The notes under the pieces are model-generated. The model was given only the letters and a program-made list of their open reading frames with translations, did not search any database and was not told the DNA's origin. Below are positions 24,605 to 28,487 of a stretch of DNA of 64,000 bases, one piece after another. The stretch comes from Candidatus Aenigmatarchaeota archaeon. Lineage in GTDB: Archaea > Aenigmatarchaeota > Aenigmatarchaeia > QMZP01 > QMZT01. The number at the start of each line of letters is the position of its first letter. Within the stretch, counting starts at the first letter, position 1. The stretch covers positions 79,666 to 143,665 of the forward strand of contig JAPLVC010000004.1 of assembly GCA_026397315.1 (NCBI GenBank). Reading direction: 5' to 3'. A program made the translations under genes and the position numbers.

Positions 24605-25099
24605 TCAAGGCAGCCTGATATCGGAAAGCAGCGTCATATATCTGTCCAAGCGCTTTATTTCCTTTTCTAGCATTTCTATCGCCCTGAGGACGTCTTTCTT
24701 GTCCTCGCCGTGCATATCCCTTAGCTGCGATTTAGCGTTCTCGAAGTCCGCCAGCGAGCCCGATATGCCTTTCTTCACGCGCATTAGAAATATCTTCTTG
24801 AGCGACTCGAGCAGGTTGCCGTTCAGCTCGATGTAAAGCCTGCGATCCTGCGACTTCTTCACTTTCCTGACTATGCCCAGTACTTCAAGGAAGTCCATGC
24901 TCAGGGAAATCATGGATATCGAATAGCCCGTCTTACTGGCAATGTCCTGGAGCGACATGGAGCCGCCGCCTATGATGAGTGCCCCTATTATATTGCCATG
25001 TATTGGGGAGAAACCGATAGACTTCGCCAGCTCGGAGAACGTTTCCAGGATCTTCTTTTCCACGTCCTGGACGCCTTTGCCTGCATCGTGCTCTTCCAT
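24605..25099 (-). CDS. GbsR/MarR-family wHTH transcriptional regulator
   Basis: GFSPIHGNIIGAL...MSLQDIASKTGYSISMISLSMDFL...RRLY, then a helical C-terminus. Confidence 0.8.
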   Translation of the reverse strand: MEEHDAGKGVQDVEKKILETFSELAKSIGFSPIHGNIIGALIIGGGSMSLQDIASKTGYSISMISLSMDFLEVLGIVRKVKKSQDRRLYIELNGNLLESLKKIFLMRVKKGISGSLADFENAKSQLRDMHGEDKKDVLRAIEMLEKEIKRLDRYMTLLSDIRLP

Positions 25100-25155
25100 G
25101 CGCTATCAACCTGACAGGGTAAAATTTATAAACCCTTTGATTTAATTAATACTTG

Positions 25156-25188
25156 AACATTTAAAAGTTTTTAAAAGTTTAAAATGTT
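25156..25188. promoter_or_regulatory. Candidate operator between the divergent regulator and tes
   Basis: AACATTT...AAATGTT inverted ends overlapping/enclosing tandem TTAAAAGTTT x2. Confidence 0.4.
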
Positions 25189-25216
25189 AACAGAAGCTGC
25201 TATCTGATGTGATGGA

Positions 25217-26869
25217 ATGAAGAGAAAAGCCGGGAAAACCGTGACGCAGAAAAATAAAACAGAATCGCTAGCGAACGCCTCCAGCGGTTACGCAGGCGAG
25301 CTTCCACACAAAACGTCGTCAATATGCCCGGATTGCCTTAAAATTCTGCCGGCTCTCGTTTTCGAGGAGGGCGGCAAGGTCTGGATAGAGAAGACGTGTC
25401 CGAAGCACGGCAAGTTCCGCGAGATATACTGGAGCTCCGCCGAGATGTACAGGAAATCGAGGAAGTTCGCTTACGACGGGCATTCCATGGAAAACCCTAA
25501 CGTAACCAAGGAAAACCCGACCTGCCCCAAAGACTGCGGCATCTGCTCGCTCCACAAGTCGCAGACGGCGCTGGCGAATCTCGTTGTCACGAACCGCTGC
25601 GATCTCAATTGCTGGTACTGTTTCTTCTTCGCGCAGAAGGCCGGCTATGTCTATGAGCCTTCCTTAGATGACCTGAGAAAGGCCGTGAAGCTCATGACCC
25701 GGCAGAAACCCGTTCCAGGCAACGCGGTGCAGCTTACCGGAGGCAATCCCGAGCTCAGGGAGGACATACTGGACATAATAAAGATGATAAGAGACGAGGG
25801 AGTGGATCACATCCAGCTCAACATGAACGGCACGCACAAGTTCTGGAACGACCCGGAATGGACCATGAAAGTCAGGGAAGCGGGCGTGAATACAGTTTAC
25901 CTGTCGTTCGACGGCGTCACGCCCAAGAGCAACCCGAAGAACCATTACGAAATCCCGAACATGCTTCAGAACTCGAGGAAAGCCGGCATGGGCATAATAC
26001 TCGTTCCCACCATAATCAAGTCCGTCAACGACAACGAAGTCGGCGACATACTGCGCTTCGGCTTCAGGAACATGGACGTCGTGCGCGGAGTCAATTACCA
26101 GCCAGTTTCGCTGGTCGGCCGCATGCCCCGCAAGGAGCGCGATAAGTTCAGGGTAACCATTCCAGACGTCATACAAAGGATGGAAGAGCAGACGGATGGC
26201 CAGATAGTCAAGGAGGACTTCTACCCGGTCCCGACCGTGAAGGCGATAACAGATTTCGTCGAGGCGCTTACTAAAAAGCCGCAATACTCGCTTTCGACCC
26301 ACTTCGCCTGCGGCATGGCCACATACGTGTTCGAGAACGAAGGCAGAATGCTGCCCATCACACGATTCGTCGACGTCGAAGGATTACTGGAATACATCGA
26401 GGAGCAGGCCGGCGAACTGAACAAGGGACGGAGCAGATACATAATCGGCACCAAGATGCTGTTCAAGATGAATTCGTTCATCGACGGCAAACGCGCGCCG
26501 AAAGGCTTCTCGCTCGGCAACATGTTATACAACGCGCTGATGAAGCACGACTACCGTGCGCTTGGAGCGTTCCACCACAAATCGCTTTTCATCGGCATGA
26601 TGCACTTCATGGATTTGATGAACTACGACATAGAAAGGGTAAAGAGATGTTGTATTCATTATTTGACACCCGAAGCGGTGATACCTTTCTGTGCGTTTAA
26701 TGTTATACCGGAGATGTACAGAGACAAAGTTCAGAATAAATATGCTATTTCTTTTAAAGAATGGGAAAAAATGACAGGCAAAACTCTTAAAAATGATTTA
26801 TACAAAAGAGATATTGAAAAAATTAAAAATACGGACTTGTACAGGAAAACCTACGAAGGCTTCTTGTAA
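25217..26869 (+). CDS. tes: Radical SAM tetraether lipid synthase (Tes/GDGT-MAS, MJ0619-like)
   Basis: N-terminal CPDC...CPKHG, CPKDCGICSLH, VTNRCDLNCWYCF, QPVSLVGR, HFACG, C-terminal RCCIHY...IPFCAFN. Confidence 0.85.
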   Translation: MKRKAGKTVTQKNKTESLANASSGYAGELPHKTSSICPDCLKILPALVFEEGGKVWIEKTCPKHGKFREIYWSSAEMYRKSRKFAYDGHSMENPNVTKENPTCPKDCGICSLHKSQTALANLVVTNRCDLNCWYCFFFAQKAGYVYEPSLDDLRKAVKLMTRQKPVPGNAVQLTGGNPELREDILDIIKMIRDEGVDHIQLNMNGTHKFWNDPEWTMKVREAGVNTVYLSFDGVTPKSNPKNHYEIPNMLQNSRKAGMGIILVPTIIKSVNDNEVGDILRFGFRNMDVVRGVNYQPVSLVGRMPRKERDKFRVTIPDVIQRMEEQTDGQIVKEDFYPVPTVKAITDFVEALTKKPQYSLSTHFACGMATYVFENEGRMLPITRFVDVEGLLEYIEEQAGELNKGRSRYIIGTKMLFKMNSFIDGKRAPKGFSLGNMLYNALMKHDYRALGAFHHKSLFIGMMHFMDLMNYDIERVKRCCIHYLTPEAVIPFCAFNVIPEMYRDKVQNKYAISFKEWEKMTGKTLKNDLYKRDIEKIKNTDLYRKTYEGFL

Positions 26870-27753
26870 GAATTTAGAATTTCTTCTAATTTTTCTGATC
26901 TCTTGGGATGTTTGAAACCGACAAGTCTTTGAAATTTTTCTATTTCATCTCTTCCTGTAATATTTATGTAATACATATCATTCTTATTTTTTATGACAGA
27001 GTTTCTTATTTCTAACTCTTTGAGAATCTCTGAAATACCTTCTGCCATTTTTCTGCTGGACGTGGCATAGTTTACAATTCTGAGGCCTTGTCTTTTAGTG
27101 TAAGCAACAGAACCATCTCCATCGAAACAACCACGCAAAAAGCATTTCTTGATTTCTATTGACGATTTTTTTATTTTTTCAGGCACTTTCACTATATCAA
27201 ATTTTTTACCCTTTGGAATTCCTAATTCATGAAAAATAGTTGATATGGTTTTGTTTTTTACATAAACCTGCATTTCATTTTTTTGATATATGTAAAAATT
27301 CTTATGGTTAAAAATTTTCTCTATGTTTTCCATGAAAATTGATCTTAGATGTTTTTGATTGTTTACAAATTCTACCCAAGCCAAGTTTTTGTCTATATGA
27401 CCATCTGTTATTATCAATCCCATTAAATATGCCAGGTTCCCATCGATAGCAATGGGCAAACTTCTTTTAACAGGCAAACTTCCCTGCGCCGAGCCTATTC
27501 TAATGACTTTTACTTCTATCAATCGCGTGTCCATTTTAACACTCTCGTTTATTTTCAAAAGTGTTTTTACAGGTATCAAAAACTTACCGTTAAACCACCT
27601 GCTTACTGTGAATTGCCCTACTCCCAGATAACCAGCGAGCTTGTATTGGCTGCCAAAACTTACCAGTGCTTTGTTGAAAAACTCTTTTCTGAAGTTTTCT
27701 TCAAGCTCGACAGAAAGTTCGCTAATTTCATATAAATTTAAGCAGTTTTCCAT
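26851..27753 (-). mobile_element. Free-standing LAGLIDADG (intein DOD-type) homing endonuclease gene with an N-terminal HTH
   Basis: LAYLMGLIITDGHI and FLRGCFDGDGSV motifs, HTH YKLAGYLGVGQFTVSRW, markedly AT-rich, TTTATAT about 25 nt upstream of ATG 27753, no intein splicing motifs. Confidence 0.9.
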
Positions 27754-27796
27754 GATATTATATGCACTTTTAGGACATATAAACAATTTTCAACAT

Positions 27797-27856
27797 GACA
27801 TAGAAAGCATCAAGAAAAGCGAAGTCTACAAAAAGACTTACGAAGGGTTCGTTTGA
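27797..27856 (+). pseudogene. Stranded duplicate of the last 20 codons of tes
   Basis: DIESIKKSEVYKKTYEGFV* versus the tes end DIEKIKNTDLYRKTYEGFL* (26810-26869). Confidence 0.9.
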
Positions 27857-27914: not shown

Positions 27915-28487
27915 ATGAAAATAATCACTCTCAAAGCCGCGCTCAAGGACATGAACCGCGTCAATCTCGCTAAGGCGATACGCGAGGGAGCGATTCTCGT
28001 TTATCCCACGGACACGCTCTATGGCATCGGCTGCAACGCGCTGATTAAGGCGAGCGTCGAGAAAATCGCCCGCGCGAAGGGCCGCGAGCCCGGCAAACCG
28101 TTTTCTGTCATAGCGCCGTCGAAAGAGTGGATAACCGAGAACACGCGCATAGACGAGAACAACGCGAAATTCGTCGACAGCCTCCTGCCCGGGCCTTACA
28201 CTGTCATATTGAAGGTGAAGAAAGACATACCGCTGGTAAGCGGCGACGGCAAGCTGGGCGTGCGCATACCCAAGAACGAGTTCTGCGACTTCATCCGCTC
28301 GCAGGGAGTGCCTTTCGTCACGACGTCCGTCAACCTCGCCACGACCGGTCCCATCGCTTCCATCAAGGAGATGCCGGAGTCGCTAGTAAGCGCCGTGGAC
28401 TATGCGATAGACGCGGGCGAGCTGAAAGGCGACTCTTCCAGGATTTTCGACATCAGTGGCAAGGACATGCAGATAATCCGCTGGTAA
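27915..28487 (+). CDS. tsaC: L-threonylcarbamoyladenylate synthase (YrdC/TsaC, single domain)
   Basis: YPTDTLYGIGC, KGREPGKP, LPGPYT, TTSVN. Confidence 0.9.
   Translation: MKIITLKAALKDMNRVNLAKAIREGAILVYPTDTLYGIGCNALIKASVEKIARAKGREPGKPFSVIAPSKEWITENTRIDENNAKFVDSLLPGPYTVILKVKKDIPLVSGDGKLGVRIPKNEFCDFIRSQGVPFVTTSVNLATTGPIASIKEMPESLVSAVDYAIDAGELKGDSSRIFDISGKDMQIIRW

Follow-up and report, generated by a model that had tools for sequence, protein, structure and literature searches.

We identified, in a 64,000-nucleotide stretch of a Candidatus Aenigmatarchaeota contig (hereafter the window), what is very probably a splicing-independent homing element at the tetraether lipid synthase gene, tes, working in the manner of the WHO elements of yeasts and the mORFs of fungal mitochondria. 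The mobile unit is proposed to comprise a replacement tes 3′-end and an antisense HTH-LAGLIDADG endonuclease gene with its own promoter (Table 1). Comparison with related genomes revealed a chimeric gene, a native stub, a sharp left junction, spread across hosts, an intact nuclease gene and alleles in which the nuclease has been lost; cleavage and resistance are inferred, and no expression data are available.

Table 1. Features of the occupied tes locus, in window positions
Feature	Position	Strand	Remark
tes, tetraether lipid synthase	25217-26869	+	NF045702 701.6 bits (cut-off 450); 550 aa, uninterrupted
tes 5′ part, host-derived, codons 1-466	25217-26614	+	GC3 ~0.75
Left homology or co-conversion zone, FHHKSLFIGMMHFMD, includes M462	26570-26614	+	Conserved
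Left junction and inferred nuclease target	26600-26640	+	From empty-allele comparison; cut position inferred
Cassette-borne tes 3′-end, codons 467-550 and stop	26615-26869	+	GC3 0.30 versus 0.85 in empty allele
Free-standing endonuclease gene, 300 aa	26851-27753	-	Two LAGLIDADG motifs, N-terminal HTH-like region
Putative nuclease promoter	27761-27783	-	TATA-like TTTATATG at 27783-27776 and AAGTGCATA motif; sequence only
Stub of displaced native tes end, 19 codons and TGA	27797-27856	+	Start of inferred right homology arm
sua5/tsaC	27915-28487	+	Directly follows tes in empty alleles

The source genome (G000; 1.05 Mb, 91% complete) was found to hold no tes other than the window copy. Its product meets the class features of Tes, i.e. 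a radical SAM core, an N-terminal zinc ribbon or rubredoxin and the conserved Met and Tyr, and aligns to the M. jannaschii GDGT-MAS structure (7TOL) with an offset of 20. By this alignment M462 is the counterpart of the [4Fe-4S] ligand Met439 of M. jannaschii Tes and Y482 that of Tyr459, two residues completely conserved across 1,000 Tes homologues (PMC9433317); the left junction falls between them, and both are kept in the chimeric allele. Activity of the chimeric Tes in making tetraether or macrocyclic lipids is inferred from the intact frame and the few amino-acid changes. A failed attempt to delete tes in Sulfolobus suggests essentiality there (PMC8941075). A MarR/GbsR-like regulator gene lies divergently from tes at 24605-25216, a position conserved across the order. 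In two other assemblies (L024 of G006, and L032) the tes frame is broken by a frameshift, and in G055 (L089/L095) tes has a large in-frame insert near codon 147 within an open frame of 1065 aa, which is probably an intein; tes would then have been invaded by two different strategies.

The third-position composition of tes changes abruptly at codon ~472 (26630), GC3 being 0.74 before and 0.33 after, and the log-likelihood gain of this change point (23.0) exceeded the maximum of 300 permutations (9.0). The GC3 drop past codon 472 was found in every occupied allele (0.45, 0.45, 0.39 and 0.20) and was no more than 0.13 in all 49 nuclease-free tes alleles. Thus the codon switch that a sequence-only reading of the window had placed near 26640 is a real step, but the sequence first departs from the empty alleles at 26615 (codon 467), the switch lying ~7 codons upstream of that placement; nor does the gene stay AT-rich right up to its stop, as had been stated, with a GC3 of 0.73 in codons 541-550.

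Empty alleles do exist among close relatives and end in the sequence of the stub, so that the proposed comparison of empty and occupied alleles could be made. The 90% cluster of the window Tes has ten members, six with the consensus Tyr at 468, of which four end in the stub's peptide; four of the six Tyr468 alleles were examined as DNA (L276, L277, L278 and L280). In L276-L278 the sua5 gene directly follows tes, and the L280 contig ends just past the stop. Compared with L278 and L280, the window tes has 91-93% nucleotide identity over codons 40-450, is identical over codons 452-466, and falls to 69% over codons 468-531. No difference was found in the left homology zone among G000, the second occupied genome G003, L275, L279, L278 and L280, and the first base differing from L278 and L280 opens codon 467, where GAT CTT TAC AAT TAC of the empty allele is replaced by GAT TTG ATG AAC TAC (Y468M). 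The codons of D466-L467-Y468-N469 (MHFMD-LYNYD) are therefore the likely junction and target, cleavage being inferred, rather than the RCCIHY codons assumed in the sequence-only reading, since the changes begin 10 codons before these. Conservation of the DNA would not by itself pick out the target, with codons 457-464 ranking third among 24-nt windows, and the consensus empty-site pattern was absent, at two mismatches, from the 91% complete G000 genome.

The replacement tail differs from the empty allele at 12 of 84 amino acids, has 69% nucleotide identity with it and carries alterations in 66% of synonymous codons, with synonymous changes mostly from G/C to A/T (36 versus 4). Only 24 of 71 codons are identical, versus 23.2 ± 3.5 expected from independent AT-rich choice. 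The term ‘recoded’ is therefore not to be taken as a sign of design; the divergence has the look of saturation, reached under AT-rich codon usage that tail and nuclease gene have in common (GC3 0.30). An AT-rich C-terminus has been installed as had been supposed, but designed recoding beyond saturation is unsupported. The longest run identical between tail and empty allele is 11 nt, versus 36-77 nt upstream, which should, by inference, discourage crossover before the nuclease is copied. A target-site duplication was also considered for the 11-nt match GACATAGAAAG at 26627 and 27797, and was ruled out because the empty L280 natively has GACATAGAAAG at codon 532 and another sequence at codons 471-474.

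Downstream of the nuclease gene, the second copy of the tes end noted earlier was indeed present, as 19 codons and a stop. This stub has 54 of 60 nt identical to the end of the empty L278 and L280, and only 40 of 60 identical to the expressed tail of its own gene; in G003 the stub matches the L280 end at 58 of 60 nt, and across both genomes the match to the own tail is only 40-42 of 60. The stubs being closer to the ends of empty alleles than to their own tails, it is the stubs that are native and the expressed tails that came in. The more host-like codons attributed to the stub are weak as evidence from composition (11 of 19 G/C-ending versus 0.53 in the matching tail), but its native origin is borne out by the empty alleles. 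The stubs of G000 and G003 differ mostly at silent sites, the stop codon included, as expected if each was once a working gene end.

The antisense LAGLIDADG gene overlaps the tes stop, as had been read from the window, the overlap being 19 nt, and it encodes two LAGLIDADG domains; its TATA-like box rests on sequence alone. A Pfam search matched LAGLIDADG_3 (PF14528) over two stretches with 72 bits, the HTH match being weak, and the acidic residues of the two motifs, D117 and D213, are invariant in five homologues; with both helices, the acidic residues and the fold matches in place, the protein meets the description of a two-motif, monomeric LAGLIDADG enzyme. Its structural model (pLDDT 92) is best matched by archaeal intein and intron LAGLIDADGs, and neither a splicing (Hint) domain nor a zinc finger nor CxxC repeats were detected by domain search, alignment and the model. 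The likely start is the ATG at 27753, giving 300 aa as in the homologues, whose lengths disfavour the TTG at 27786. Between G000 and G003 the gene has 17 synonymous and 9 non-synonymous codon changes, and it appears to be undamaged and to evolve under purifying selection. The AAGTGCATA motif that immediately precedes the start codon (27769-27761, minus strand) is kept in all five nuclease lineages examined and could be an operator for the HTH domain or an initiation element; expression from the TATA-like box is inferred, with no RNA data set listed as a carrier. A sigma-70 promoter scan was set aside as not applicable to archaea.

One close copy of the nuclease gene occurs in the G000 genome, a 97% identical protein is annotated from Candidatus Aenigmatarchaeota, and close relatives were found in 4 of 371 genomes of the phylum. 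Six of the seven loci of this close clade have the nuclease gene tail-to-tail with tes, followed by three different downstream genes. The nuclease gene has the distribution required of a homing gene, being patchily present at a fixed locus and showing lateral spread together with co-conversion. Only distant matches, and no close relative in viral contigs, were returned by an IMG/VR search, which leaves the absence of a viral carrier unproven.

The close relatives together appear to give a full series of alleles, i.e. empty, occupied, nuclease-deleted and nuclease-less recombinant. L275, a third host that is 6-9% distant from G000 and G003, has the same tail and retains the stub, whereas a deletion joining 26886 to 27788 has removed 901 nt of its nuclease gene; among the three occupied or formerly occupied alleles the tail differs by 0-1 nt. 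L279 has cassette sequence in codons 467-521, host-type sequence from codon 522 to the stop, and no nuclease gene. This would fit repair resolved inside tes, with the reservation that a contig of 2.9x coverage could be chimeric; a simple loop-out between tail and stub is unlikely because the host-type codons start at 522 and the stub begins at 532. L276 and L277 have the consensus site, but their tails from codon ~511 differ from that of L278 and are more AT-rich, perhaps relics of an earlier round by inference.

Evidence for lateral spread came from G003, a GTDB species separate from G000 and ~10% distant in the tes 5′ part and sua5. The two genomes have no differences over 26570-26859, differ by ~3% across the nuclease gene, and differ at many positions again from 27811. 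Separate trees of the two parts of tes, as the sequence-only reading had proposed, were discordant, and the occupied alleles of close relatives cluster only in the tail. In G018, a member of another genus with a 52% identical nuclease, protein identity to the empty sister G014 is 88% in the 5′ part but falls to 60% in the tail, which is closer to family f5 (77-81%) and has the extra residue of that family as an indel marker. The G018 5′ part was placed as sister to G014 (bootstrap 100) and its tail with f5 (92); the AU test rejected G018 with G014 for the tail (p = 0.004) and G018 with f5 for the 5′ part (p = 6e-5), the tested groups having been named after the trees had been seen. The G018 stub is short and runs into DNA matching that downstream of the G014 tes. 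As the G000 tail protein is closest to its own genus and the G018 tail is of f5 type, different nuclease lineages carry tails of different origin.

The pattern is less complete elsewhere. In G074, from another family, tes and FEN1, adjacent in empty relatives, are separated by the nuclease gene. The GC3 drop of 0.20 is present, but a stub and a clear protein-level discordance are lacking, and we counted these two absences against the homing reading. A further partial occupied case, L097, has a nuclease breaking off at residue ~146 into unrelated DNA, and is either a truncated element or a chimeric contig. A 45% identical nuclease gene in L033 is head-to-head with FEN1 as in G074 with no tes on its other side, which was likewise counted against homing and is possibly a rearrangement or an orphaned element. 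Every occupied lineage departs from the L-Y-N-Y consensus at codons 467-470; also counted against the homing reading, KFNYD and LMNYD variants occur in nuclease-free alleles without a composition shift, so that resistance cannot be concluded from the residue change by itself, and these variants may be natural resistant alleles. KF or LM at 467-468 was considered as a sign of occupancy and rejected, because L281 and L282 have these residues but no nuclease gene.

From these alleles the following course is proposed. A donor would meet an empty allele, whose conserved MHF(M/Q)D-L-Y-N-Y-D codons the nuclease is inferred to cut; repair would then copy donor DNA starting in the conserved tes stretch that immediately precedes codon 467, the outcome of which is seen in the alleles. 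The donor tail being too diverged for easy crossover, the right end would usually find no partner before the stub, or beyond it the spacer or sua5, so that the nuclease gene would be copied too, an inferred but supported step. The right arm had been assigned to the recipient's last ~60 nt; it probably begins with the stub but continues through the spacer into sua5, and the occupied G074 lacks a stub altogether. As observed in the alleles, the recipient ends up with a full-length chimeric tes, the nuclease gene, and its own last 19 codons as the stub; that the gene stays intact but chimeric, as predicted, is seen from the uninterrupted frame and the tail discordant with the 5′ part. Changed codons 467-469 are inferred to make the new allele resistant, cleavage itself being placed at codons 466-470. 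The nuclease gene may later be deleted, as in L275, or repair may be resolved inside tes to leave a converted allele without it, as in L279, both of which are seen as alleles. That the stub and the DNA beyond it act as right arm, and that the nuclease is expressed, are likewise inferences.

The same alleles may be read without homing. An AT-rich tes end could have entered once and spread by ordinary recombination or selection on Tes, with the nuclease a hitchhiker or cutting elsewhere. The same tail in the nuclease-free L275 and L279, the occurrence of a nuclease gene without tes and of motif variants without a nuclease, and the absence of cleavage evidence all agree with such passive replacement, which we consider unlikely for several reasons. 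The arrangement is found again, with other tails, stubs and downstream genes, in two genera and a further family; the left junction is sharp within a highly conserved stretch in both mappable lineages; and selection on the nuclease is purifying. Were the tail a local adaptation, a foreign f5-type tail in G018 would also be unexpected.

Drift in place has even less to recommend it, and we hold it very improbable. By this account a local duplication accompanied insertion of the nuclease gene close to the tes stop, and the tail turned AT-rich through antisense transcription or mutation bias without any horizontal spread; the grouping of the G000 tail protein with its own genus and the bias of the synonymous changes would suit it. 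It is already contradicted by a near-identical tail across hosts whose flanks differ by 6-11%, besides a boundary sharp to one codon, a native end matched by the stub and not by the expressed tail, and a G018 tail that comes, indel marker included, from another family. All data being metagenomic and the GC change abrupt, a chimera of AT-rich and GC-rich genomes made in assembly or binning was also considered, an assembly chimera having been named earlier as a refutation. It is ruled out for practical purposes, for the same junctions recur in independent assemblies (G003/L031 and L275), the probable source run gives one 23.7 kb contig of even depth, and pieces of the cassette appear in runs of two other studies. 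Homing with replacement of the gene end thus remains the preferred reading.

The closest precedent, which the sequence-only reading had not named, is the yeast WHO elements at FBA1 of Torulaspora and Lachancea (PMC7282813; bioRxiv 10.64898/2026.08.13.744650), a type called a rare third category, ‘considerably more rare’ than introns and inteins (bioRxiv 10.64898/2026.08.13.744650). As at tes, a stand-alone LAGLIDADG gene lies downstream of a conserved gene, a variant 3′-end is supplied, the old end is displaced as a fragment serving as second homology region, and the 5′ and 3′ trees of the host gene are discordant (PMC7282813). WHO proteins, related to HO/VDE, however have an intein-like region and a C-terminal Cys-X-X-Cys zinc finger, neither of which was detected here, and WHO elements leave fragments of ~400 bp, form tandem clusters and act on FBA1 in meiotic diploids, whereas the tes element has an antisense HTH-LAGLIDADG gene overlapping the stop, a stub that is either 42-60 nt long or lacking, and a single copy on an archaeal chromosome, and moves across species and families, with cleavage inferred. 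Fungal mitochondrial mORFs (Allomyces atp6; Glomus atp6, atp9, cox2 and nad3) have an inserted C-terminus, an endonuclease ORF and the native C-terminus in that order, as here, and their native stubs are 91-98% identical to relatives versus 64-81% for the inserted ends (PMC3630166), the values at tes being 90% and 69%. They are organellar, on the same strand, co-transcribed and sometimes in frame, unlike the antisense tes nuclease gene with its own putative promoter on an archaeal chromosome. The tes element belongs to neither group despite working like both.

The nuclease itself has its best structural matches among archaeal intein and intron enzymes (TliVMA intein, PI-PfuI, I-Tsp061I and I-DmoI), and its nearest sequence relatives include intein-bearing proteins; tes hosts inteins elsewhere (NF045703). 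It differs from these enzymes in standing alone on the opposite strand without a Hint domain, RNA families having been outside the search. The phage endonucleases SegF and MobE resemble the element in lacking an intron or intein, in a target within a neighbouring conserved gene, in resistance by sequence difference and in co-conversion, and differ in being GIY-YIG or HNH enzymes of phages that sit between genes without duplicating a gene end. Such ‘intronless homing’ of T4-like phages is a related free-standing system (PMC2988022, PMC2790892). Free-standing LAGLIDADG genes are also reported from Haloferax glycosylation islands, with no target given (PMC5867893). Our literature search, outside which most subscription papers lay, found no report of the tes element or of gene-end replacement in archaea.

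We give slightly better than even chances to the broader proposal that gene-end-replacing homing arose independently in archaea from intein-type HTH-LAGLIDADGs, is a common and active lifestyle in DPANN archaea, drives the exchange of core-gene ends and may drive an arms race in Tes. If true, core-gene ends (tes 3′, with thrS, alaS and metK 5′ as candidates) would be exchanged across species and families, with a possible arms race in active-site codons of Tes. On the homing reading, the tes locus by itself extends a rare homing strategy to archaeal chromosomes with an unusually complete natural allele series. The sequences are also evidence of DNA exchange among uncultured DPANN cells, between species as well as between families. 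Trees of tes in this phylum can be chimeric past codon ~467, a point of consequence for studies of how GDGT lipids evolved. The nuclease is a testable new LAGLIDADG enzyme whose inferred target is narrowed to ~30 bp.

Other free-standing LAGLIDADG genes were observed in the phylum. In L041 (G010) and L042 (G317), one lies directly upstream of thrS, whose GC3 is 0.08-0.43 over the first ~125 codons and mostly 0.7-0.8 thereafter, a candidate mirror-image replacement of the 5′-end in two families; no stub was found within 500 nt. In L046 (G336), a short copy of the first ~12 codons of the downstream gene, presumably an alanyl-tRNA synthetase gene, lies upstream of the nuclease gene with a weak score of 43. 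At C6:158945-161002 of G000 itself, a LAGLIDADG-like gene ends at the start of a gene that we take to be metK-like. The latter is frameshifted near codon 15, and its GC3 is lower over the first ~80 codons; either an assembly error or a related event could underlie this. An AT-rich ORF of 581 aa in the same genome (C3:152914-154659, minus strand) has a LAGLIDADG-like region and a C-terminal domain with a HIGH-like motif that resembles a cytidylyltransferase. LAGLIDADG genes that are free-standing and AT-rich, with core genes or non-coding stretches as neighbours, were seen in many Aenigmatarchaeota genomes, for example at L045, L049, L057 (topoisomerase-like), L048, L051, L058, L043, L053 and L065, and a LAGLIDADG match at E ≤ 1e-12, inteins included, was found in 127 of the 371 genomes.
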